NCBI GenBank assembly: GCA_038757895.1
Contig: JBCDGE010000012.1
Location: forward strand, 1 to 64,000
Direction: 5' to 3'
DNA: 64,000 bases
From: Planctomycetota bacterium
GTDB taxonomy: Bacteria > Planctomycetota > UBA1135 > GCA-002686595
Of the stretch, positions 40,974 through 62,637 are shown piece after piece. The notes under the pieces were generated by a model. The model was not told where the DNA came from, made no database searches, and was given only the letters and a program-made list of their open reading frames with translations. Made by a program: the position numbers and the translations under genes. Position 1 is the first letter of the stretch, and each line of letters opens with the position of its first letter.

Positions 40974-43349
40974 TTGGAATCCACACCTCACTCCTGGACC
41001 CGCACGCGCGAGGTCTTCCTCGAGCTGGCCGACCTGGGCGCCGGGGCCCGGAGCGAGGCGCTCGATCGGCTCCGCGCGTCGGACCCCGCCCTGGCGCGCG
41101 AGGTCGCAGAGCTCCTCGACCACGACCTCGACGCGACCGAGCTGCCCGCGGAGTCGTCCAACGCGCGCTTCGGCCCCTACGTTGCCATCGAGCGCATCGG
41201 CGCCGGCGGCATGGGCGAGGTCTACCTCGCACGCCGCGACGACGGCGAGTTCGAGCGCGAGGTTGCGGTCAAGGTCCTGCGCGGCGGCGCCGCAGGACCG
41301 GACCTGACGGCCCGCTTCCAGCGCGAGCGACAGACCCTCGCCGCCCTGAGCCACGAGTCGATCGTGCGGCTGCTCGACGGCGGGACGACCGCGGACGGCC
41401 GCGCGTACTTCGTCATGGAGTACGTCGAGGGGCTCAACCTCGACCACCACGCGCGCGACCTCGGACGCCGCGAGCGCCTGGAGCTCTTCCTGCGCGTGCT
41501 CCACGCCGTCGCGCACGCCCACGGGCGAGGCGTCGTGCACCGAGATCTCAAGCCCTCGAACATCCTCGTCCGCGCCGACGGCGCGGTGCGGCTCGTCGAC
41601 TTCGGGATCGCGCGCCTCCTGGGGACGGACCCGGAGCTCGGACGGGGCCAGACGCTCACGCGGACGGGGCAGCGCGTGTTCACGCCCGAGTACGCGAGCC
41701 CCGAGCAGGTCGGCGGGGAGCGCACGTCCCCCGCAACGGACGTCTTCGCGCTCGGCGTGATCCTGTACGAGCTGCTGGCGGGCAGCTCGCCCTGGCCCTC
41801 GGGTGGGACCACGCACGACCTGGAGCGAGCGATCCTGGAGGCGAGCCCGCCGGCGCCCAGCCGCCGCGCGACCGGAACCCAGGCGCGCGCGCTCCGGGGC
41901 AACCTGGACACGATCGTCCTGAAGTGCCTGGAGCGCGATCCTGCGCGGCGTTACCCGGATGCCGCCGCGCTCGCGGCGGACATCGAGCGCGAGCTCAGCG
42001 GACGCACGATCGAGGCGCGCCGCGCCACCGCGCTCGAGCGCGGCCTTCGCTTCGTCCGCCGTCGGCCCTGGCACACGCTCGCGGCCGCCTCGTCCGTCGT
42101 GGCCATCGTGGCGGCGGGCCTCGTCCTCGTCTCCCGCGGCGAGGAGACGCGACGCCAGGGGGCACTGGCCGACCAGATGCCCGACCGGCTCGCGGCCGTC
42201 CACGGCCTGATCCAGGCGCGTGCGTTCGACCGCGCGGAGTCCCAGCTCGCGCGGGCGGCCGAGGACATCGCGTCCCTCTCGGACGCGGGTGCGCTCGACG
42301 CCCTCCGTCGCCTGCGCGTCATGGAGCTCGAGCTGGCGCAGGGTCGATCGGCGCGCGTCCTGGACGAGGTCGAAGCCGCGCGCTCCGTCGCCGCGTTCGA
42401 GTCTCCCGACCACGTGCACCTCGCGCTGGAGCTGCGCTTCTTCGAGGCCAACGCGCTCGCCGGCCTGGGTCGGATCCCGGAGGCGGAGCGGGTGGCCCGC
42501 GAGACCATGAAGGCCGCCGAGGGCGTCCTGCCGGCTTCCCACTCGATCCGGATCGACCTGGCGACGATCCTCGCCCGCGCGCACCTGGAGCGCGGCGAGC
42601 TCGACGCGGGTCACGAGCTGCTGGAGTCGGTCCGGCAGCCGGCCCTGGAGCGTGGGATCGAGAACGACCCGGTCGTCGCGCGGATCGACGGACTCCTCGG
42701 TCGCTGGCTCCGCGAGGTCGGCCGCCCGAAGGAGGCGCTCGAGCGCCTGGAGAGCGCTCGCTCGGCCCTGCGCTGGAGCTACGGCGACCGCCACCCCGAC
42801 GTCGCCGAGCTCACGATGGTCCTCGCTCGCATCCGCTTCGAGCAGGGAGATCTCGACCGCGCATGGGAGGAGATCCAGGCCGCGCGCGCCGCGTTCCGCG
42901 CGTTCAACAGCCCGATGATGCGGGCCTACCTCCTGGAGCTCGCGAGCCACGTCGCGTCCGCACGCGGAGACCTGGAAGGGAAGCTCGGCGCGCTGGAGGA
43001 GAACCTGGAGAACGTCGAGACCCACCTCTTCCCCGACTTCCGGCCGCAGTGGTGCGTCAGCCAGATGCACCGCGGCATCACGCTGGGCGAGATGGGCCGG
43101 CTCGACGAGTCGATCGAGGCGTTCGAGGCGGCGCTCGCTCCGGCACCGGGCAGCGACGTGCCGGCGGTCGCTCCGAAGGGACCCCAGGTCGAGGCCGAGA
43201 TCCGCGCGAGCTTCGCGGAGGTCCTTCGCGCAGCGGGGTTCCCGGACGAGGCGCGCGACGAGTTCGCGCACGCCGCGGACCTCTTCGAGGAGGCCCTCGG
43301 TGCGGACCATCCCGTGACGAAGAAGGCGCGCGCGCTCGGCGGCGGCTGA
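40974..43349 (+). CDS. Serine/threonine protein kinase with C-terminal TPR-repeat domain
   Basis: Hanks kinase motifs: GAGGMGEVY, VAVK, HRDLKPSNIL, DFGIAR, SPEQ. About 500-aa TPR-like helical C-terminus. 791 aa. Confidence 0.8.
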   Translation: MESTPHSWTRTREVFLELADLGAGARSEALDRLRASDPALAREVAELLDHDLDATELPAESSNARFGPYVAIERIGAGGMGEVYLARRDDGEFEREVAVKVLRGGAAGPDLTARFQRERQTLAALSHESIVRLLDGGTTADGRAYFVMEYVEGLNLDHHARDLGRRERLELFLRVLHAVAHAHGRGVVHRDLKPSNILVRADGAVRLVDFGIARLLGTDPELGRGQTLTRTGQRVFTPEYASPEQVGGERTSPATDVFALGVILYELLAGSSPWPSGGTTHDLERAILEASPPAPSRRATGTQARALRGNLDTIVLKCLERDPARRYPDAAALAADIERELSGRTIEARRATALERGLRFVRRRPWHTLAAASSVVAIVAAGLVLVSRGEETRRQGALADQMPDRLAAVHGLIQARAFDRAESQLARAAEDIASLSDAGALDALRRLRVMELELAQGRSARVLDEVEAARSVAAFESPDHVHLALELRFFEANALAGLGRIPEAERVARETMKAAEGVLPASHSIRIDLATILARAHLERGELDAGHELLESVRQPALERGIENDPVVARIDGLLGRWLREVGRPKEALERLESARSALRWSYGDRHPDVAELTMVLARIRFEQGDLDRAWEEIQAARAAFRAFNSPMMRAYLLELASHVASARGDLEGKLGALEENLENVETHLFPDFRPQWCVSQMHRGITLGEMGRLDESIEAFEAALAPAPGSDVPAVAPKGPQVEAEIRASFAEVLRAAGFPDEARDEFAHAADLFEEALGADHPVTKKARALGGG

Positions 43350-43364: not shown

Positions 43365-43925
43365 TCAGTCGACCTCGGAGACGCGGCGCGCGAGCCAGGC
43401 GCGGGCCGCCCGCCAGGACCGCTCGACCGTTCGGTCGGAGACCCCGAGGAGGGCCGCCACCTCCGCCACGGACAGCCCACCGAACCAGCGGAGCTCGACG
43501 ATGCGTGCTCCCTGCGCGTCGATCTCGGCGAACGCCACGAGCGCCTCGTCGAGGGCGACGACGGCCTCGGGCTCGTCCTCCAGCGGGCTCGCGACCTCGA
43601 ACAGCGTCACGCGCGCCCCACCCCCGCCGCGCCGGTCCGCGAGGCGCGCTCGCGCGTGCTCCAGGAGGACGCGCCGCATCGCGGTGGAGGCGTAGGACAG
43701 GAACGCCCCCTTGCCGTCCCACTCGGCCCGCGCGCCCTGGACGAGCCGCACGTAGGCCTCGTGGACGAGGGCAGTGGGCTGGAGCGTGTGCCCCTTGCGC
43801 TCACTCGCGAGCTGGCGCGCGGCGATGGAGCGAAGCTCGGCGTGCAGGGTCGCCACGAGGTCGGAGACGGCGCCGTCGTCGCCGGCGCGGGCGGCGTCGA
43901 TGAGGTGGGTGACGTCGGTCGCCAT
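43365..43925 (-). CDS. ECF RNA polymerase sigma factor (convergent with the Ser/Thr kinase)
   Basis: Region 2 LVHEAYVRL and region 4 ARIVELRWFGGLSVAEVAALLGVSDRTVERSWRAARAWL. Start at ATG ending 43925. The upstream part of ORF 43365..44687 is spurious. Confidence 0.75.
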   Translation of the reverse strand: MATDVTHLIDAARAGDDGAVSDLVATLHAELRSIAARQLASERKGHTLQPTALVHEAYVRLVQGARAEWDGKGAFLSYASTAMRRVLLEHARARLADRRGGGGARVTLFEVASPLEDEPEAVVALDEALVAFAEIDAQGARIVELRWFGGLSVAEVAALLGVSDRTVERSWRAARAWLARRVSEVD

Positions 43926-44117
43926 GGCCGGAGGGTACGGCGATCGCTCCGACCGCAGGCCCGGCGCGCTGGCCGTTGCCGCCTTTTTTCGAACTCGGTG
44001 TCGGCCCACGGGCGGGGCCTGCACTCGGGGGGGTGAGGCCGCGGGACAAGGGTGCCCGGGCCGACCCGAACCCCCTGAAGAAACCGGCGCGGAGCACGCC
44101 TCCGCGCGGATCGACCG

Positions 44118-46565
44118 ATGACACCGACCACTCGTTCCTTCCTGTCCCCCCGCGCTCTCATGCTCGCGATGGGACTCCCCCTGGGAGTCCTCGCGCCGGC
44201 CTCGGCACAGTCTCTCGATGGGGCCTTCGACGGCACCGGCTCCGAGTCCGTCGAGGCGTCCGCGCCCCGCTCCTTCCAGGTCCGCGATCTCCTGGACGCC
44301 CCCCTGATCGACGCGACCGCCGAGCCGGGCGCGGTCTGGACGCGCGATCGCAACCAGCGCCTGCGCTTCGGCGAGGGCTCGATCGAGGTCCTCCCGGTCT
44401 TCGGCACGAACTCGCCCCAGGAGTGGCCCGTCGAGATCACGGTGCACGGGGCGACGGTCGGCGCCGAGTCCCTGAACGTGACCCCAACGGGCGCCCCCAT
44501 CGTCCTGGAGTCCCGCGTCGTCCAGCCCCGTGCGGCGCTGCGCGGCGTCCACCACCTCGGACGCGACGGGTTCGAGCAGACCTTCGTCTTCGACACGCTC
44601 CCGACGCGCGGTGAGCTCTCCCTGCTGCTCGGCGTCGAGACCGAGCTCGGGGTGGAGACCGGAGGCGGCGCGCTGTCGTTCGTCCACCCGACGCTCGGGC
44701 GCGTCGACGTGGGCGAGGCGACCGCGATCGACGCCGACGGGCGTCGCTCACCGGTCGAGCGCCGCTGGGTCGGCGAGGGCATCGAGCTCGTCGTCCCCGC
44801 GGACTTCGTCGAGACCGCCCAGCTGCCGCTGACCATCGACCCGGTCTGGCAGACCTTCGTGAACGACTTCGGCGCTCCGGACGATGGCCACTCGGACATC
44901 GTCTACGCGGGTGAGTCGCAGCGCTACGTGTTCGTGTGGGAGGAGTTCACCTCTCTGGTGAACCGGGACGTCTACGCGACGTTCCTCGACGCTTCGCTGA
45001 ACAACCAGGGCAACGCGATCGCGATCGACATGACGAACGAGGATTGGACTGCGCCTGCGATCGCGTACGCCAACCTGGAAGATCGTGTGCTCATCGCAGC
45101 CACGGCGCTCAACGGCACCAGCTCGCGCCGCGTCGCCGGGCGTCTCGTGAACGTCGGTTCATTCACTCCCTTCGGAGGGACTCTCTCGATCAGCACGATC
45201 GGGACGACGATCAAGAGCAGCGTCGACGTCGGCGGCTCGAACGCGATGAGCTCGATCCAGTCGAACTTCGCGGTGACCTGGTCGCGCCAGACAGGAAGCG
45301 GCAACGGCAACATCGAGCACCGCATCGTCAAGTCCGACGGCACGTTCGTGACGCCCGTGGTCACCGTGGACTCCTCGAGCGCCAACGACATACAGGTCGC
45401 GATCTCCCAGGGACTCGGAGATACGTCGCTGCTGGGCGACAACTGGCACCTCGTGTGGATCCGCGAGGGCAACAACGACGATCGGGGCGATCTCTTCGGC
45501 AAGCGCCTCTACTACAACGGCAGCCAGGCGTCCTCGTCGGACCAGTTCCTGATCGACTCGTCCGGCGACTACGCGCACCCCGACGTCAGTTCTCTCTTCG
45601 ACGAGCCCGACGCGTTCACCGGAGAGCGCGGCGCGATCGTCGTCGCCGAGGCGTTCAAGTTCGACAACCTCCGTCCGGGCGGATACCGGACAGACATCGA
45701 GGCGCGCCTGATCAGCGACGACGACTTCACGGGCGAGCGGCTCTACCTCAGCGCCATGGAGGACGCCGAGCGCCAGCTCCTTCAGGCGCGACCGCGGGTC
45801 GCAACGGACGGGACGGCGTTCTACGTCACGTACATGGAGGAGGAGCCGACGATGATCAACGGCGGTGTCTGGAACATCTTCATGACGTCCGGCGACACCA
45901 TCGAAGGCACCCTGCGGAGCGGCGTCGCCCTCGGCGAGCGCCACGTCGAGCTCGCGGCCGCCCTCGGCTCGGAGTCGGACGTCAGCGTGACGACGCGCTG
46001 GAACGGTGAGAGGAACTCGGCGTCGAAGGAGGGAGTTGCGATCTGGACGGTCGTCGACGACAACCTCGCCGGCGGCTACGGCCAGATCGATGGAGCTGGC
46101 TTCGAGCACATCCTTCCCTTCATCACGCCGATCCGCTCGGTGGGCGTCCAGTACGGCGAAGCACTCCTCACGTCGTCCGATGACGATGCAACGGGCTGGA
46201 TGCGCATCTTCGGCAACCAGAATCGATCGACCACTCACATCGCCCAGGCGATCGACCTTCCGCCGGACGTCTTCGGGTTCCTGCTCGTCTCGCGCGAGCC
46301 GGGGCAGGTGAACTTCCCCGGCGGCAGCTCGGGTCGGCTCCTCCTCGGGGGACAGATCGGTCGCTACGTGGACCAGATCACGTCCAGCGGGACCTTCGGT
46401 CGAATGAGCTTCAACATCGATCCGTTCGACCTGCCCCAGCCCGCCGGCGCAGCGTCGGCTCTCGTCAACGAGACCTGGCACTTCCAGGCATGGCACCGCG
46501 ACTCCGTGAATGGCCAGCCCACGTCGAACCTGACGAACGGCGTGCGGGTGACGTTCAAGAACTGA
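44118..46565 (+). CDS. Large secreted protein of unknown function with conserved C-terminal about 95-aa domain
   Basis: Signal peptide (MLAMGLPLGVLAPASAQS). 815 aa, Ser/Thr/Gly/Asp-rich beta-like sequence. C-terminus homologous to the C-terminus of the S8 peptidase at 58281..60137. Confidence 0.6.
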   Translation: MTPTTRSFLSPRALMLAMGLPLGVLAPASAQSLDGAFDGTGSESVEASAPRSFQVRDLLDAPLIDATAEPGAVWTRDRNQRLRFGEGSIEVLPVFGTNSPQEWPVEITVHGATVGAESLNVTPTGAPIVLESRVVQPRAALRGVHHLGRDGFEQTFVFDTLPTRGELSLLLGVETELGVETGGGALSFVHPTLGRVDVGEATAIDADGRRSPVERRWVGEGIELVVPADFVETAQLPLTIDPVWQTFVNDFGAPDDGHSDIVYAGESQRYVFVWEEFTSLVNRDVYATFLDASLNNQGNAIAIDMTNEDWTAPAIAYANLEDRVLIAATALNGTSSRRVAGRLVNVGSFTPFGGTLSISTIGTTIKSSVDVGGSNAMSSIQSNFAVTWSRQTGSGNGNIEHRIVKSDGTFVTPVVTVDSSSANDIQVAISQGLGDTSLLGDNWHLVWIREGNNDDRGDLFGKRLYYNGSQASSSDQFLIDSSGDYAHPDVSSLFDEPDAFTGERGAIVVAEAFKFDNLRPGGYRTDIEARLISDDDFTGERLYLSAMEDAERQLLQARPRVATDGTAFYVTYMEEEPTMINGGVWNIFMTSGDTIEGTLRSGVALGERHVELAAALGSESDVSVTTRWNGERNSASKEGVAIWTVVDDNLAGGYGQIDGAGFEHILPFITPIRSVGVQYGEALLTSSDDDATGWMRIFGNQNRSTTHIAQAIDLPPDVFGFLLVSREPGQVNFPGGSSGRLLLGGQIGRYVDQITSSGTFGRMSFNIDPFDLPQPAGAASALVNETWHFQAWHRDSVNGQPTSNLTNGVRVTFKN

Positions 46566-46666: not shown

Positions 46667-47257
46667 CTACCGGACCATGCCGGCGCGCATGAGCGGCCAG
46701 AGCCGCACGCGCACCTTGCCGCGCAGGTACTCACGCGGGACCTGGCCGAACTCGCGGCTGTCCGAGCTGCGGATCCGGTTGTCGCCGAGGACGAAGTACG
46801 AGTCCTCCTCGACGACCGTGTCCACGAAGGCGTACGGGTCGTTCGCGTTCGGGTCGACGTAGGGCTCCTCGAGGAGCTCGCCGTTCACCCACACGAGCCC
46901 GTCGATGATCTGGACCCGGTCGCCGGGCAGGCCGACCACGCGCTTCACGTAGTCGAGCGACGGGTTCATCGGGTAGCGCAGGACGACGACGTCGCCGCGG
47001 CCGACCGACGCGAACAGGTACGAGACGTGGTCGACGAGGATCCGGTCGCGGTCGCGGATGCCGGGCATCATCGAGCTGCCGCGGACCTCGCTGAAGTTGA
47101 AGCAGAGCGCCCACGCCAGCAGCATCATCACGAAGCTCTTGGCGGTGAACGTCACCGCCACGCGGGTGAAGCTACGGCGGGGCCGCGGGCGCTGCGGCAG
47201 CGGCGGGAGCGGCCGCCCTTTGCGGCGCTCGGCCTCGCCGTCGCGCGGCCGGAACAT
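46667..47257 (-). CDS. lepB: Signal peptidase I
   Basis: SSMMPGI (catalytic Ser box B), VKRVVGLPGD (box D, Lys), VLGDNRIRSSDSR (box E). Start at ATG ending 47257. The rest of ORF 46667..48157 is spurious. Confidence 0.8.
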   Translation of the reverse strand: MFRPRDGEAERRKGRPLPPLPQRPRPRRSFTRVAVTFTAKSFVMMLLAWALCFNFSEVRGSSMMPGIRDRDRILVDHVSYLFASVGRGDVVVLRYPMNPSLDYVKRVVGLPGDRVQIIDGLVWVNGELLEEPYVDPNANDPYAFVDTVVEEDSYFVLGDNRIRSSDSREFGQVPREYLRGKVRVRLWPLMRAGMVR

Positions 47258-47631
47258 CGAGCTCCGACGCCCGGGATGGTCGTGCTCGACCTCACCGCGG
47301 CGTACGCGGCGGCGGCGATCCTCGACGGGGCGCGCCTCGGGGCCTACCCCGTGCCCTCTGTTCCCTCTCTGCGGCGTCACCCGTCCCGCATCGGAGACGT
47401 GCGACGCGTGAATCAAGCCGTTGAGAACGAACTGGACGAGCGTCCTCGGTCGAGACGCGCCGGGTCCAGGATCTGTACAGGCGCTCCGGATGAGGCGTCG
47501 GCGGACGCTCCGACGCATGGGGAGCCCGACGGACGTTCGCGAGGCCCCCGTTCGGCTCGAATTTCGCTCCCCGACGGGCGAACGGACCGGCCAGCGGCGC
47601 GCCGCGCTGCCCCGTTCCCTACCCTCCCCGC

Positions 47632-55765: not shown

Positions 55766-57496
55766 TCAAATCGACGCGAGGACGTCGAGCTCGTCGGCGA
55801 GTGCTTCCGCGCTCCGCTCGTCCGCGTTGCGCGCGCGGTGGTGCACGCCCACCCAGTGCTCCGCGAGCCCGATCCGTGCGTCGGGGACAGCCTCCGGGTC
55901 GTCCCCCACGCCGTCGAGGCGCTCGCCGTCGCGCAGCGCGAGGGCGTACGACAGCAGGTCGACGCGCATCGCCGCGTTCTCCAGGTCGCCGTCCTCCAGG
56001 AGGCCGCGGGTCGCGGCGACGAATGGCTCGACCACCGTCTCCCACGCGTCGTCGTCGCCGAGACGGTCGAGGCACGCGGCGACGATCAACGGTCGTCCAG
56101 CGTTCTCCCCCTTCCATTGCTCCGGGGTCACGTCGAGGGTGACCTCACGGAGGAACGCGAGGCCGCGGTCGTCCCCGCGGAGCGCGAGCCAGAGCGCGAT
56201 CGGCAGCGGGTCGCCCTCTGCGCCGGGCTCCCACTCGTCGAGCCACGCCAGCGCCTCGCGCTCGAACTCGAACGCGCCGCGCTCGGCCATCGCGACGATC
56301 GTCTCGGTATCGAAGACCTCCGGGTCGTCGAGCCACGCCCGACGGACGCGCCGGGCGGCCATCGGGCTCGGATCCACGGCGAGCGCGCGCAGGAGCGCGG
56401 AGCGGAAGTACGCCGGCGAGACGTCGAGCGCGAGGAGCCGGTCCACCGAATCGGCGACGAACGGCCAGAGCTCGGGCGAACGCCGGAGCTGGGCGAGCGC
56501 GCCCTCGCGGTAGGCCATGCCCAGCATCTCCAGGCGCAGCGCCGGCGGCAGGGCCTCGTAGCTGAGCTCCTTGATCGACTCGTGGGCGACCAGGTCGTCG
56601 TTCGACGCCCGGCGGCCGGCGCCGCGCGCGATCAGGTAGAAGGTCGGCTCCGCGTCGGGCGCGAGCCTCTCGGGGGCCTCGCCGCCGATCGTGACGGAGA
56701 CCGCACCGCGCTCGACGCGTACGTCGACCACTCCGTTCGCGGTCGGGAGCGCGGTCGCCAGCCAGTGCCCGGGGTCGACGGGGCGACGCGCCTCGCGGTC
56801 GGTGCGGAACGCGACGCGCATCGCGGCGCCCGCGGGGAGGTCGAGCCGGACGCCGCCGGGGAGCTCGAGGCGCGCCGCGGCACGCGCGGCGTCGACGCGG
56901 AACGTGCCGCCGCCGAGCTCCAGGAGGTCGCGCTCGACGAACGCGAACAGCGCGCCGGGCTCGGCCTCCACGGCCGCGCCGTCGGGCAGGGTCACGCGCG
57001 CCGACGCTCCGCGGGGGACGAACGCCGCGCGGCCGACGCCGAGTTCACGCTCGACCGCGTCCGACGCGCTGCCGACGCGGAGGGCGCGGTCGGCGCGCGC
57101 GAGGACCGCCGTGGCGGGGCTCGCGGGGCTCTGGATGCTCGGCGCGGGACCGACGCCGGTTCCGTCCGCGGGTCCACCTCCGCGGGTCGAGAGGAGCGCG
57201 ACCGCGCCGCCGGCCACGAGGACCGCGGCAGCCGCAGCGACCCGACGCCCGGGACGCCATCCATGCGCTTCACGCACGAGACGCGGTCGGGGTGCGCGGT
57301 CCGGGGGCGGCTCCCGCAGCGCGGCGTCGATCGCTTGCTCACGCCTGGAGCGGCGGACGAGGCGCGGCGCCGGACGGCGCTCGCCCCGCTCCCAGGCCTC
57401 GCGCACGAGCCGGCTCAGGTCCGGCCCCGCCTCGGAGCTCTCGCCGAGGACCTCGCGCAGCGCGTGGTCGACGAGCCTGTCTTCGGGATCGGTCAC
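55766..57496 (-). CDS. Anti-sigma factor, FecR-like, single TM with large periplasmic domain
   Basis: GTG start overlaps the sigma-factor stop (GTGA, 57493-57496). Cytoplasmic N-terminus, TM (VAAAAAVLVAGGAVALL), periplasmic beta-rich and helical domains. 576 aa. Confidence 0.55.
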   Translation of the reverse strand: MTDPEDRLVDHALREVLGESSEAGPDLSRLVREAWERGERRPAPRLVRRSRREQAIDAALREPPPDRAPRPRLVREAHGWRPGRRVAAAAAVLVAGGAVALLSTRGGGPADGTGVGPAPSIQSPASPATAVLARADRALRVGSASDAVERELGVGRAAFVPRGASARVTLPDGAAVEAEPGALFAFVERDLLELGGGTFRVDAARAAARLELPGGVRLDLPAGAAMRVAFRTDREARRPVDPGHWLATALPTANGVVDVRVERGAVSVTIGGEAPERLAPDAEPTFYLIARGAGRRASNDDLVAHESIKELSYEALPPALRLEMLGMAYREGALAQLRRSPELWPFVADSVDRLLALDVSPAYFRSALLRALAVDPSPMAARRVRRAWLDDPEVFDTETIVAMAERGAFEFEREALAWLDEWEPGAEGDPLPIALWLALRGDDRGLAFLREVTLDVTPEQWKGENAGRPLIVAACLDRLGDDDAWETVVEPFVAATRGLLEDGDLENAAMRVDLLSYALALRDGERLDGVGDDPEAVPDARIGLAEHWVGVHHRARNADERSAEALADELDVLASI

Positions 57497-58068
57497 GCGC
57501 CCAGCCTCCTCTCGACGCACTCGCGGAGGCGACGTCGAGCGCGGACGAGGATCGAGTGCACGCCGGACTCGGAGAGCTGGAGCCGCTGCGCGATCGCGGC
57601 GCGGCCGAGGTTGCCGGCGTACCGGAGCTCCAGCGCGTCCTTGGTCCGACCGGTGACGCCGGTGAGGCAGCGGCGGAGCGCGTCGAGGTACGGCGCGCCG
57701 CCCGCGTCCTCCTGGAACTCGGACCAGACCGTCTCGGCGGCGTCGAGGTCGACCGACGGCGGGTCGCGGTCGAGCCTGCGCAGGCTCTTGAGGAAGAGGT
57801 GCCGGGCGATCGACCGCAGGTACCGGGCCGTCGCGCGATCGTCCCGCTCCTCGAAGCGCGCGGAGAGGAACGTCAGGAACGTCTCCTGGACGAGGTCGTC
57901 GACGTGCGCCCGCGGGCAGCCCAGATAGCGGAGGAAGCCCCGCACCGCGCCCTGGTGGGTCACGACGAGGGCCTCGACGGCCTCGCCGTCGAGGGCCGCT
58001 GATCCGCCCTCCAACGACTGATCCGCTGACGGGGGGGCTCCGTTCGTCCTGCGAGAGTGCACGCTCAC
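57493..58068 (-). CDS. ECF RNA polymerase sigma factor
   Basis: Region 2 DLVQETFLTFL and region 4 LELRYAGNLGRAAIAQRLQLSESGVHSILVRARRRLRE. Confidence 0.75.
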   Translation of the reverse strand: MSVHSRRTNGAPPSADQSLEGGSAALDGEAVEALVVTHQGAVRGFLRYLGCPRAHVDDLVQETFLTFLSARFEERDDRATARYLRSIARHLFLKSLRRLDRDPPSVDLDAAETVWSEFQEDAGGAPYLDALRRCLTGVTGRTKDALELRYAGNLGRAAIAQRLQLSESGVHSILVRARRRLRECVERRLGA

Positions 58069-58280
58069 CGGACGACCATCCCCCGCCGCAGCGGATCGGT
58101 CGCAACGATCTCGGGAATTCCATCCGGGGCGGCTGGAAACCGCCCTGGAGGGTCTTCAGAGCCTGCTCAGGAATCTCCGATTCTGCTGCCCAGGCTCTGA
58201 GCCGACCTTGCTGGCGCACCCGCGAACGCGGGTGCGCTGTTCGCGTGGGCAAATGCTGCCCACGCTCTCAGGGCCGGTCG

Positions 58281-60137
58281 CTACTCGAAGAAGACGGCCA
58301 GGCCGTCGGTGAAGTTCGAGATCGGGAACCCGAAGATCGTGTCGCGGTACCAGGCCTGGAAGCGCCAGGTGTCACCGGCGGCGACCGAGACCGCGCCCAG
58401 CGGCTGCGGGATCGTCGTCAGGTCGATGTCGATCGACGCCGTACCGGCACCGGTGGCGCCGACGACCTGGTTCACGAACCGCCCGATGTCGCCGCCGAGG
58501 CACAGGTTGCCGGCGCTCCCGCCGGGGTTCACGACGAAGCTCTCGTCCCGCGACACCAGGAACAGCGTCGGCGAGAACGGCGGAAGGCTGGACGCGGCGA
58601 GCTCGAAGTCGTTGAGGGCGACCTCGTTGGAGCCCGCGAACGTGATCTCGGCCGAGAGCCCGGAGGAGTTCGCGATGGCGGGACCGCAGTAATTGACGCC
58701 GGCCGCGCCGAAGGCGACGGCCTCGTCGGCGGCGGCCTCGAGGTTCATGCGACCACCGGACACCGTGAATCCGTCGAGGGTCGGACGCACGTCGACGGTG
58801 TCGATCAGGATGCGCTTGATCTCCAGCGCCGCGGCGGCCGGGTCGGCGTCGCGGAAGAGGGCGAATTCGGGGCTCGCGACCGAGTGCAGGAGAGCGATCG
58901 CGCCGGTGACCTGCGGCGTCGCCATCGAGGTCCCGGTCAGGTTGCCGTAGCCGCCACCGGTGACCGTGCTGCGGATCGACGCACCGGGCGCGCCGAGGTC
59001 GATCTGCGTGAGGCCGAAGCCCGAGAACGTCCGGCGGTCGTCGTCGTTGGTCGCGGTGACCGACACCACCCAGTCGCTGGTGCACCCGGTCGGGACGTCA
59101 CCCTGCGTGTCGACGTTGATCTGACTGTTGGCCGTCGCGGCGCACGACAGGATGCCCGACTGCCCCATCAGGTCGTACATGTCGTTCCACGGCCGGTACT
59201 GGGGCGAGTTGCAGTTGGCAAAGTCGATGCCGAAGCTGGAGTTGGTGGCGACGATGTTCGCGCCCTCCGTTCCGTTCGAGGTCAGCCAGTCGTCCTTGAG
59301 ATCGAGCGCGTAGCCGTACGCGATCAGGACGGTCGAGGTGCTGCCGGACGAGCCCGCGATCGCGACGAACTGGCTGTTCCAGGACACGCCCGCGATGCCG
59401 ATACCGTTGTCGCCCTGGGCGGACGCGATTCCGGTGACGTGGGTGCCGTGCGTGCTGCCGGTGACCGAACCGGAGTTCGAGAACGCGTTCCAGCCGAAGC
59501 GGTCGTCGACGTAGCCGTTGCCGTCGTCGTCGACGCCGGGGGTGCCGTTGACCTCGGCGGTGTTCTCCCACCGGTTCCCGATCAGGTCGGGGTGGGTGTG
59601 CTCGGTGCCGCCGTCGACGATCGCGACGGCGAACTCGGACGAGCCGGTGCCGCGGTCCCAGGCCTCGGGCGCATCGATGTCGGCGTCGGTGGTTCCACCC
59701 GTCTGCCCCGTGTTGCGCTTGCCGTACTGCTGGTTGAACTGCGGGTCGTTCGGGATCGTGTCGCGGTTGGTGACCACGTGGTCGGGAGTCGCGTACTGGA
59801 TCCCAAGGCGCTGCTCCAGGTCCGCGGTGGCGTCGACGACCGAGGTGCCGTCGAGGATCTGGACGAGGAACAGGTCGAGGCCGCGGACGATCGGCCGCTC
59901 GATCGCGAAGCGCTCGCCGAGGATCGAGGCGCGCAGGTCCTCGGAGAGGCCCGCGCTGAACCGGACGAGCACCTGACCGTCGATGTACGACGGCTGCGGG
60001 CGGCCGTCACGGCCGTCCGCCGGCGTCACGACCGGACGCTCGGTGATCGGCCCGCGCTCCTGGGAGACGGCGGGCGGCGTGGGCGCCTGGGCGGGAGCGA
60101 CGAAGGGCGCAGCGACGACGAGTGCGACGTGGAGCAT
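58281..60137 (-). CDS. Secreted S8-family (subtilisin-like) serine peptidase with conserved C-terminal about 95-aa domain
   Basis: Signal peptide. Asp box AIVDGG, His box HGTHVTG, Ser box GTSMATPQVTG. C-terminus homologous to the C-terminus of the protein at 44118..46565. Confidence 0.85.
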   Translation of the reverse strand: MLHVALVVAAPFVAPAQAPTPPAVSQERGPITERPVVTPADGRDGRPQPSYIDGQVLVRFSAGLSEDLRASILGERFAIERPIVRGLDLFLVQILDGTSVVDATADLEQRLGIQYATPDHVVTNRDTIPNDPQFNQQYGKRNTGQTGGTTDADIDAPEAWDRGTGSSEFAVAIVDGGTEHTHPDLIGNRWENTAEVNGTPGVDDDGNGYVDDRFGWNAFSNSGSVTGSTHGTHVTGIASAQGDNGIGIAGVSWNSQFVAIAGSSGSTSTVLIAYGYALDLKDDWLTSNGTEGANIVATNSSFGIDFANCNSPQYRPWNDMYDLMGQSGILSCAATANSQINVDTQGDVPTGCTSDWVVSVTATNDDDRRTFSGFGLTQIDLGAPGASIRSTVTGGGYGNLTGTSMATPQVTGAIALLHSVASPEFALFRDADPAAAALEIKRILIDTVDVRPTLDGFTVSGGRMNLEAAADEAVAFGAAGVNYCGPAIANSSGLSAEITFAGSNEVALNDFELAASSLPPFSPTLFLVSRDESFVVNPGGSAGNLCLGGDIGRFVNQVVGATGAGTASIDIDLTTIPQPLGAVSVAAGDTWRFQAWYRDTIFGFPISNFTDGLAVFFE

Positions 60138-60309
60138 GTGCGTGGGATCGCACGGTGGGAACCGGGCGACGGGACAGGCCGGGGGATGGAGAGGCCGCGC
60201 GGGGGACGCGCGGCACTGAAGCGTCGCTCATAGACGCAGAGCGCGCCGCTGAGGATCCCCAGGCTTCTCGATTCGATCCCCATCGAAGGGGCACATGCGA
60301 CCCTCCGCC

Positions 60310-62637
60310 TCAATCGGAGAGCGCGGGCGCCCCGGACGTGGCCGCTCCACGACGCACGTCGATCCGGGCGCCCTGGACGCCGACGCCGCTCGTCCAGACG
60401 GCCGTGACGCTCCCGAGGCCGTCCGGCCCGGACGCGGAGCCGGCCGCCCCGGAGGGCGCGCTGACGGCGAGCTCCAGCCGGCCGCTGCGGCGCTCGGGCT
60501 CGACGTCCGCGATCCGGACCGGGGCCGACGGAGCCGCGCCGGGCGCGAGCAGGAGCGCGGACCAGCTCGCGCTGGACGTCGCACCGTCCGCGCCCGCGAC
60601 CTCGGCCAGGTGCACGAGCACGAAGCGCCCGTCGCCGACGGACGCGAGGTCGACGCGCCCCTGGGTCGCCCCCACCGCGACGTCGATCGGCGCGTCGTAC
60701 GTCCGTCCTCGATTGCGCGAGAACGCGACGCGGACGCGGCGCACGTCGAGGCCCTCGGCCTGCGTGAACCAGGCCACGGCGACGATGCGGCCGCTCGCGG
60801 CGACCGCGGGTCCGCTCACGGGGCAGCCCTCGATCCGCCAGCCGTCCTCATGCACGGGCGCGGGGTCGGTCCATCCGTCGGTGCGTCCGCCCTCCGCGCT
60901 CCCCCCTTCCGCGCCGGGCAGCCGCCGCACGGTCCAGATGTCCCGGACCTCGGAGTCCGAGCGGTCGCGGTACGCGACGACGACCGTGCCGTCGTCCAGC
61001 AGGGCCGCGTCCGTCGGGCAGCAGTCGCACACGCGATCGTCGAGCACGATCTCGTCGAGCCGCTCGCCGTTCGCGCGGATCGTCCTCGCGAGGAGCTGCG
61101 CTCCGCGGTTCGACGGGGACGGTCGCGCGTCGAGCCAGACGGCGAGCGCGCTCCCGCCGATCTCGGGGACCAGTGTGACGAAGCCGTGTTCGACCGCTGA
61201 CGCGTCGTCGTGCAGCCAGCCGAGATCACGGGCCGGTGGCCCGTCCTCCTCGATCGACAGGCGCACGCCGTGCGCGAAGGTCGACTCGGCCGCGATGCGC
61301 TCCAGCGTCGCGACGAGGAGCGCGCCGGAGGCCAGTCGCGTCGCGCGCGGGAGATCGGCCCAGTTCACGAACAGCGGACCGCGGTCCGCCGGGCTGCCGG
61401 GCCCGGGCTCGACGAGGGTGCGCTCGGGGAGCATCGATGGGTCGCGCCCACCGAGCAGCACGACGCGCCAGCCGTCGTCCCCGGCGGCCGCGGACGTCGC
61501 GCTCGCGATCAGGGGCGGGACCGCTCGGACCGCACCGGTCGCATCGCTCGCAGAGGATCCGTCCCCCGGCGAGCCGCGCTCGAGCGGCGAGAGCGCGGTC
61601 ATCCGCTCCACGAACGACGGGAACCGCGCGCTCGTCGGCCCGGGGACGGTCACGCGCGTCACCTCGAGACGGAGGCCCTCCAGCCGACGGTCGGGCGCGT
61701 CGCCCAGGAGGATCCCGGCGACGCCCGCGAATCCCACGAGCGTGCCGAGGATGCCCACCGGACCCGCGCGCTGACCGACGAACAGAGCGAGCGGAAGCGT
61801 GAACAGCGGCGTCGACGCGAACAGGAGCGCCGACACGCCACCGGGCAGCTCGCGGAGCGCGTAGTGGTACGGCAGCAGTCCGAAGATCGCGCAGCCGACG
61901 CCGGTGAGCGAAGCGCGCCCCCACACCGAAGCGGGCCCGGGCGCGACGAAGAGGGGCTGGATGAGGCGACTCACCTCCGCCGTGGCGGACGACCCCTGGC
62001 GGAGCCCGACGAGGAGCGCGAGGGGGAAGGCGCCGATCGCGCCGCCGAGCAGGCGAATGAACCCGCCGGGGCACACACCGACCTCGTCGAAGCGGCCGCG
62101 CCCGAGCGGCACCGCGGTCCCGATCGCGAACGCCGCGCACATGGCGAGGCCGACGCCGATCGCGTAGCTCGAACGCCCCCGCGGGCTCGACGGGTCGCCG
62201 CCGCGCCCGTGACGCGCGTCGAGGATGACGAGCAGGACCCCGACGAGTACGACCGCCATGAACGGCAGCATCTGCGTCTGGATGGCGTCCCCGGCGAGCG
62301 GCACCGCGAGCACGGTGGCGATCGGGACGTTGAGGAGCATCACCGTCGCCGCGGTCTGGACTCCGCAGCGCCGGAAGGCCGCGAAGTACAGCGTGTCCGC
62401 GACCGTGAAGCCGAGGAGCCCCGAGAGGAACAGCCAGCCCCAGGCCTCACCCACGGGCCACCTGCCGCCGAGCGTGAGCGCGGCGACGAAGAAGCAGAAG
62501 GCCGCGAGACCGTTCTTGAAGAGGTTGGCCGCCGCCGGCGTGACGTGGCCGTGCTCCAGAAGCCGGCTGATCGCGACCGACGCGACCGCCCAGCTTGCCG
62601 CGGCGCTCAGCGCGGCCAGGATCGCGAGCGTGGACAC
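60310..62637 (-). CDS. EamA/DMT-family transporter (about 10 TM) fused to a C-terminal BNR/sialidase-like beta-propeller-type domain
   Basis: N-terminal about 300 aa with duplicated EamA-like 5-TM halves. C-terminal about 470 aa carries Asp-box-like FSRNRGRTYD and repeated W/T-rich beta segments. 775 aa. Confidence 0.55.
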   Translation of the reverse strand: MSTLAILAALSAAASWAVASVAISRLLEHGHVTPAAANLFKNGLAAFCFFVAALTLGGRWPVGEAWGWLFLSGLLGFTVADTLYFAAFRRCGVQTAATVMLLNVPIATVLAVPLAGDAIQTQMLPFMAVVLVGVLLVILDARHGRGGDPSSPRGRSSYAIGVGLAMCAAFAIGTAVPLGRGRFDEVGVCPGGFIRLLGGAIGAFPLALLVGLRQGSSATAEVSRLIQPLFVAPGPASVWGRASLTGVGCAIFGLLPYHYALRELPGGVSALLFASTPLFTLPLALFVGQRAGPVGILGTLVGFAGVAGILLGDAPDRRLEGLRLEVTRVTVPGPTSARFPSFVERMTALSPLERGSPGDGSSASDATGAVRAVPPLIASATSAAAGDDGWRVVLLGGRDPSMLPERTLVEPGPGSPADRGPLFVNWADLPRATRLASGALLVATLERIAAESTFAHGVRLSIEEDGPPARDLGWLHDDASAVEHGFVTLVPEIGGSALAVWLDARPSPSNRGAQLLARTIRANGERLDEIVLDDRVCDCCPTDAALLDDGTVVVAYRDRSDSEVRDIWTVRRLPGAEGGSAEGGRTDGWTDPAPVHEDGWRIEGCPVSGPAVAASGRIVAVAWFTQAEGLDVRRVRVAFSRNRGRTYDAPIDVAVGATQGRVDLASVGDGRFVLVHLAEVAGADGATSSASWSALLLAPGAAPSAPVRIADVEPERRSGRLELAVSAPSGAAGSASGPDGLGSVTAVWTSGVGVQGARIDVRRGAATSGAPALSD

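Follow-up and report, generated by a model that had tools for sequence, protein, structure and literature searches.

Two exported proteins with a common C-terminal domain

The 64,000-nucleotide stretch of DNA analyzed here (positions 1 to 64,000 of contig JBCDGE010000012.1, Planctomycetota bacterium assembly GCA_038757895.1; hereafter referred to as the window) contains two genes that code for otherwise unrelated exported proteins of 815 and 618 amino acids (aa) ending with the same domain. Both open reading frames (ORFs) were found as originally described. The GC content of third codon positions is 0.90 in the gene of the 815-aa protein and 0.94 in the gene of the 618-aa protein, an S8 peptidase, in a window of 71% GC, and codon-position GC is typical of real genes. 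The features of the two carriers, with domain boundaries taken from a family hidden Markov model (HMM), are as follows.

44118-46565, + strand: copy-1 carrier gene, an ORF for the 815-aa exported protein (NCBI protein AAGI22_05770 of a metagenome-assembled genome, MAG)
44118-44207, + strand: predicted Sec signal peptide, MTPTTRSFLSPRALMLAMGLPLGVLAPASA followed by QS; the translation has a basic n-region, a hydrophobic core and an A-S-A motif
44295-46112, + strand: copy-1 cargo, an N-terminal beta-sandwich region and then a 7-bladed-type beta-propeller (residues ~60-665)
46137-46562, + strand: terminal domain copy 1, matching family HMM positions 2-141 with E = 1.4e-53 (HMM match 46137-46559)
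58281-60137, - strand: copy-2 carrier gene, an ORF for the 618-aa S8 serine peptidase with a PF00082 match
58794-59636, - strand: S8 catalytic domain, residues 168-448 (Pfam envelope)
58284-58706, - strand: terminal domain copy 2, typical of the family in keeping both cysteines and the motifs NSS and NFT, matching HMM positions 2-141 with E = 9e-59

The assignment of the second carrier to the S8 (subtilase) peptidases was borne out by a PF00082 match (E = 1.4e-28; score of 100.5 bits, cutoff 21.8), and the catalytic motifs IVDGG (D), HGTHV (H) and GTSMATP (S) can be read from the translation. Orthologues that have kept the terminal domain were found in three (L001, L002 and L004) of a set of 79 related loci, designated by L-numbers (retrieved proteins are designated by P-numbers); L002 belongs to the cultured Saltatorellus ferox Poly30. 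The 815-aa protein had no Pfam or NCBIfam match over its full length at E≤1. About 17 full-length homologues of 770-856 aa were found, all from Planctomycetota MAGs or metagenomes, and a 798-aa protein of a ‘Planctomycetota bacterium’ (P0286) is 100% identical to it. The NCBI protein AAGI22_05770 (798 aa) starts 17 codons 3′ of the first ATG (44118-44168, + strand). Because the NCBI start drops the basic n-region, the longer start suits an exported protein better. The signal peptide cleavage site is predicted from the translation, and residues 4-50 are disordered in the AlphaFold2 model of the protein.

The C-termini of the two proteins had been reported to be about 45% identical. In a BLASTP comparison, residues 711-814 of the 815-aa protein aligned without gaps to residues 515-618 of the peptidase, with 49 of 104 positions identical (47%, E = 1e-24), and the rest of the two proteins gave no further alignment; the view that a shared module is attached to unrelated secreted proteins thus holds, and the module is independent of cargo. 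When either C-terminus was searched by tblastn against all six frames of the window, the same two copies only were recovered (cross-hits with E ~1e-26, next best match E = 0.17).

Boundaries, fold and distribution of the domain

The alignment of relatives and the family HMM put the length of the domain at ~141 aa, rather than the ~95 aa originally proposed, with a start at a G-x-x-Y-C motif. The 99-aa span flagged at first (46266-46562) is the C-terminal 70% of the domain, and true copy 1 reaches ~43 codons further in the 5′ direction; its stop codon lies one residue past the HMM match. The AlphaFold2 model of the S8 copy, built with a 15-sequence alignment, was all-beta with 12 strands (predicted local distance difference test score 93.4, predicted template modeling score 0.88), and the fold is confidently predicted to be a 12-strand beta-sandwich.

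Of the 40 relatives returned by a search with the S8 tail, most were gene fragments of ‘Planctomycetota bacterium’ MAGs, and all had the domain at the very end. When 1.84 billion cluster representatives were scored with a domain profile made from 15 sequences, 10,037 clusters matched at E≤1e-3; 6,944 did so at E≤1e-10, and 2,933 at E≤1e-30. Comparison with Pfam and NCBIfam, including T9SS (type IX secretion system) tails, revealed no consistent match, at E≤1 for the window copies, 1e-3 for 78 full-length members and E≤10 for 15 and 70 domain-only members. A PDB profile search with the domain returned nothing at E≤10, no counterpart was found among solved structures, and no description of the domain was found in the literature on Saltatorellus, on T9SS with Planctomycetes or on planctomycete secretion and sorting domains. 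We conclude that the domain represents a family of terminal domains that is new, very large and without annotation.

A scan with one genome per species gave at least 567 confirmed domain copies. The best 80 of the at least 567 genome matches come from 24 assemblies, nearly all Planctomycetota MAGs (60-74% GC), plus S. ferox Poly30. The GC content reported for the Saltatorellus clade is ~70%, with which the 71% of the window agrees. One contig labeled ‘uncultured Klebsiella sp.’ (L023) shares 99.96% identity over 19.3 kb with a contig of the same co-assembly labeled ‘uncultured Planctomycetaceae bacterium’ (L024); judging by the sequences, the Klebsiella label is a binning artefact. Other non-planctomycete labels (Paracoccaceae, Gemmatimonadetes, Chloroflexi) are possibly binning or labeling errors.

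The domain is always terminal: it is usually found at the C-terminus, sometimes at the mature N-terminus and never internally. Only 0-2 residues follow the match in 149 of the 150 top-scoring cluster representatives and in 186 of the 187 proteins retrieved; of ~136 strong copies in the 79 related loci and the window, 127 end 0-3 residues before the stop codon. Neither two significant copies in one protein nor an internal copy was detected among the 187 proteins. About 6% of the copies in related loci sit right after the signal peptide, ahead of other modules. In locus L027 (JAWKUK010000007.1, 1800-15850), five tandem genes code for a signal peptide, the domain, a short linker and an FGE-sulfatase domain; such fusions were also found in other assemblies (L018 and L041), with PF03781 matches of E ~1e-44 to 1e-46. 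Another protein, P0152, consists of a signal peptide, the domain and then 234 residues without an assigned fold. The expectation that all matches would be C-terminal on secreted proteins is therefore borne out for the large majority of members, the exceptions being this minority in which the domain follows the signal peptide. Short matches were sought as candidates for a signal peptide plus the domain only; most had no signal peptide and resembled truncated gene calls, P0242 alone being plausible. Copies are often dense: the window contains two in 64 kb, 36 of the 79 loci contain at least two, up to 10 were found in 20 kb (L027), and S. ferox has at least 16 within ~200 kb of sequence.

The cargo of the domain is diverse and typically secretome-like. 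Among the 78 representatives it includes GBD_T9SS_assoc (9 of 78 members), PPC, FG-GAP, Laminin_G_3 (LamG), Kelch, reprolysin-type peptidase (M12B), BNR and other domains. In S. ferox the domain is attached to two S8 peptidases, BNR/sortilin propellers, a right-handed beta-helix, endonuclease I, FG-GAP and GH16 with SdrD_B. Export was assessed by hydropathy of the N-terminal segment with an internal control. A hydrophobic N-terminal segment was detected in 124 of 137 members starting with M (~90%), compared to 47 of 146 control segments; a stricter regular expression had given 96 of 137. Typical cleavage motifs such as A-x-A-Q are seen in members.

In an alignment of 324 members, ~45 of 139 positions show conservation of 85% or more. 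Positions G23, R119 and D120 are fully conserved (100%), and C6, C67, W117, R74 and N129 are conserved at 99%. The conserved motifs are NS[ST]G, PGGSxGNLCLGGxIGR, TWxFQxWxRD and TSNFTD. Paralogues with unrelated cargo share 40-55% identity in the domain. The two best conserved polar motifs both have the form N-x-[ST], namely N-S-[ST] at HMM positions 11-13 (278 of 302 members) and N-F-T at positions 129-131 (297 of 323); both could be simple Asx-turns or sites of modification. Among 301 members, both conserved cysteines are present in 299, neither in two and a single one in none. Since the cysteines are kept or lost together, they probably form a Cys6-Cys67 disulfide, and the domain would therefore fold outside the cytoplasm. 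Copy 1, with G and L in place of the cysteines, is among the two that lack both; the second is encoded by a minus-strand ORF of L039 (0-based reverse-complement offsets 1380-2469). Copy 1 has also lost the first NS[ST] sequon (TSS) and kept the second (NLT). As read from its sequence, it is an atypical member of the family.

Gene neighborhood

The other genes located next to the two carriers are listed below.

40974-43349, + strand: Ser/Thr kinase with TPR repeats, adjoining the sigma factor gene at 43365-44000
43365-44000, - strand: planctomycete-type extracytoplasmic function (ECF) sigma factor (PF07638, E = 4e-54), located directly upstream of the 815-aa gene in divergent orientation
46667-47299, - strand: signal peptidase I (Peptidase_S26, E = 1.7e-42), convergent with the 815-aa gene and facing its 3′ end
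55766-57499, - strand: 577-aa protein without a Pfam match, a possible anti-sigma factor, downstream of the S8 gene
57493-58068, - strand: second ECF sigma factor, directly downstream of the S8 gene on the same strand
60310-62637, - strand: 775-aa protein with an N-terminal EamA transporter domain and a ~470-aa C-terminal extension without a Pfam match, upstream of the S8 gene

All-versus-all clustering of ORFs from the 79 loci revealed no real neighbor family in more than 6 loci. An apparent 52-member neighbor family was rejected, as it consisted of antisense ORFs over the coding region of the domain itself, an artefact of high GC content. Long antisense ORFs also lie over real genes in the window, e.g., at 58201-58689 (+ strand) and 58245-60233 (+ strand), and there are many others. 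None of the T9SS machinery components (SprA/Sov, PorK/L/M/N, PorU/V) was found in the 79 loci by neighbor clustering.

A link between ECF sigma factors and the domain genes was considered and rejected as incidental, since homologues of these sigma factors were confined to 1 to 2 of the 79 loci. The search of the related loci detected no homologue of the 577-aa protein and no close kin of the second sigma factor, although two loci gave a weak sigma factor match (E = 2e-7). A signal peptidase I homologue lies ~5 kb from the S8 orthologue in L004, and its proximity is probably ordinary synteny. The order of the EamA gene followed by the S8 gene is also seen in S. ferox (L002, 5910-8394).

Possible function of the terminal domain

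The presence of a single copy at a free end, on unrelated exported cargo, many times per genome and in one lineage argues for a localization module over a catalytic or substrate-specific one. We favor, at about an even chance of being correct, the reading that the domain is a lineage-specific, disulfide-stabilized, cargo-independent terminal module for targeting or retention of Sec-exported proteins in Planctomycetota of the Saltatorellus clade. A carrier protein would cross the inner membrane by the Sec pathway, as signal peptides visible in the sequence suggest. The terminal domain would then fold outside the cytoplasm and form the putative Cys6-Cys67 disulfide, to which the co-loss of the cysteines points, and its nearly invariant motifs would bind one common partner, either an envelope component or a receptor or scaffold protein. 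Many enzymes and binding proteins would in this way be gathered at one place, most likely the cell surface. Binding of the partner might serve retention alone or also passage through the outer membrane.

The 40-55% identity of paralogues, together with the invariant polar and aromatic residues, suggests a precise interaction with one shared partner. Since the domain also occurs N-terminally after the signal peptide, binding is favored over a strictly C-terminal translocation signal, and the non-C-terminal copies, all of which come right after the signal peptide, suit a binding module that needs a free end.

The logic of such a module is like that of dockerins, SLH domains or the C-terminal domains (CTDs) of T9SS cargo, though the domain is not homologous to any of them. 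Dockerins are ~70-aa calcium-binding alpha-helical modules made of duplicated EF-hand-like motifs, and dozens to hundreds of different enzymes secreted by a single organism carry them. Like them, the domain is a small, single-copy terminal module, mostly C-terminal and occasionally N-terminal, on many secreted enzymes of one organism; dockerins work via a common partner, whereas the partner of the domain is putative. No match to the dockerin family PF00404 was found, and the domain model is all-beta, not helical. SLH domains hold cargo on the envelope via a shared envelope polymer. Like these and other non-covalent anchors, the domain is found at either terminus of exported proteins with diverse cargo. 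SLH domains are, however, helical, usually triplicated and present in organisms with secondary cell-wall polymers, and have no sequence or fold similarity to the domain.

PEP-CTERM, LPXTG and MYXO-CTERM signals are likewise lineage-restricted C-terminal tags on many exported proteins. Their ~25-35 aa comprise a motif, a transmembrane helix and a basic tail, and the processing enzymes are exosortase or sortase. A signal of the PEP-CTERM or LPXTG type was ruled out, as had been anticipated from motifs: the carriers end in a beta strand (...GVRVTFKN and ...GLAVFFE) with no hydrophobic tail and no NCBIfam CTERM match. About two-thirds of the domain superposes on generic immunoglobulin (Ig)-like, FN3 and macroglobulin-type beta-sandwiches, with identity of 4-17% and no family-level relationship. 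The PPC family (PF04151) did not match the S8 protein or its tail. It matches the protein in 7 of 78 family members, whereas the domain itself is matched by no Pfam family, so that PPC and the terminal domain are distinct.

Several points weigh against the favored localization module. No sortase, translocon, receptor or partner gene was identified, and no gene family recurs beside the 79 loci. The restriction to one lineage is drawn from the best 80 of the at least 567 genome matches and would apply to these. That the conserved residues share one surface is assumed, and a beta-sandwich fold would be equally expected of a plain ligand-binding module. No experimental localization of any member was found in the literature on Saltatorellus and planctomycete secretion. 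Finally, copy 1 has neither the probable disulfide nor one of the conserved motifs and may thus represent a weakened form of the domain. Of the original suggestion that the domain is a sorting or anchoring signal, the logic of a terminal, cargo-independent tag stands. The N-terminal cases speak against a strictly C-terminal translocation signal but would be compatible with a partner-binding or anchoring module, and no sortase or translocon gene was found, so that a sorting signal is kept here as a proposal.

The domain could instead be a true secretion signal, folded and recognized in the periplasm by a clade-specific outer-membrane translocon and then possibly removed or used for covalent attachment, as in T9SS; we regard this as a doubtful possibility that deserves attention. 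T9SS CTDs are ~70-100 aa long and form a 7-strand Ig-like sandwich. Like them, the domain is a folded beta-sandwich at the extreme C-terminus of unrelated Sec-exported cargo, with one copy per protein and many per genome. Its cargo (proteases, a nuclease, a glycosidase, adhesin-like repeats) mirrors that of T9SS in type, the GBD_T9SS_assoc module being among the shared elements, and the N-terminal boundary of the domain, (I/V)G-T-N-Y-C, is sharp and conserved. A published survey found T9SS to be confined to Bacteroidetes, and the host of the domain belongs to Planctomycetota; given this limited distribution, and with known secretion systems sparse outside well-studied phyla, an analogous system elsewhere is conceivable.

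The domain differs from T9SS CTDs in having 141 aa, 12 strands and a probable conserved disulfide, and in having no profile or structural similarity to them. Profiles of type A (TIGR04183/PF18962) and type B (TIGR04131/PF13585) CTDs gave no match at E≤10 on domain-only members, in line with the original statement that the domain does not resemble T9SS CTDs by motif; a match to the Por_Secre_tail profile, which had been named as an outcome that would contradict the original suggestion, was thus not found. T9SS CTDs are always C-terminal, whereas the domain is C-terminal in 94-99% of members and N-terminal in the FGE-sulfatase fusions (L027, L018, L041) and P0152, i.e., in at least two architectures. 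We know of no C-terminal secretion signal that acts from the mature N-terminus. No candidate machinery was detected near any of the 79 loci either. Identity of 40-55% between paralogues is probably above that usual for T9SS CTDs, which would point to a precise binding interface.

It is quite unlikely, in our judgment, that the domain is an ordinary ligand-binding module, resembling a carbohydrate-binding module (CBM) or a lectin, that aims enzymes at an external substrate, e.g., polysaccharide of algae or bacteria, and plays no part in localization on the producer cell. A beta-sandwich with conserved aromatic and polar residues (W112, W117, R119, D120 and N129) that is found at either terminus, with some hydrolytic cargo (GH16, beta-helix, peptidases, nuclease), would be in keeping with such a function. 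Most of the cargo (FG-GAP, Kelch, LamG, propellers, peptidases, nuclease) is, however, not carbohydrate-active. CBMs are commonly internal and in tandem, and the absence of internal and tandem copies among the 187 proteins also disagrees with an internal CBM- or fibronectin-like module at variable positions, which had been named as an outcome that would contradict the original suggestion. No Pfam CBM family fits by profile or fold; faint CBM49 matches in 2 of 70 members (E = 0.011) are essentially noise. A single specificity over ~10^4 protein clusters in one clade would also be unusual.

That the two N-x-[ST] sequons serve as a glycosylation or attachment handle linking cargo to a surface glycan, in analogy to T9SS cargo, which is linked to anionic lipopolysaccharide after CTD processing, is very improbable: what points to it is solely the pattern, with the first sequon kept in 278 of 302 members and the second in 297 of 323, yet Asx-turns in the loops of beta-sandwiches are also commonly formed by N-x-S/T triplets, and copy 1 has lost the first sequon. 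No oligosaccharyltransferase was found, although no search aimed at one was made.

A further reading, which we consider rather unlikely, is that the domain is the handle of a novel surface-export or attachment pathway of the Saltatorellus clade, equivalent in function to the T9SS CTD system, with its own receptor or translocon, possible linkage to glycan via N-x-[ST] and about a hundred cargo proteins per genome.

Export of planctomycete proteins past the periplasm and their retention at the surface are poorly understood. In the Saltatorellus clade, a shape-shifting lineage that branches early, much of the set of exported proteins carries one and the same unnamed domain (~10,000 clusters at 50% identity, in places several copies per 20 kb). 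The list of domain-containing proteins is a ready catalogue of the likely surface and secreted proteome of the clade, and the domain is a defined bait for the partner that reads the tag, a question made directly testable by the cultured and fully sequenced carrier S. ferox Poly30. A database profile for the domain would give thousands of ‘hypothetical proteins’ an informative annotation.

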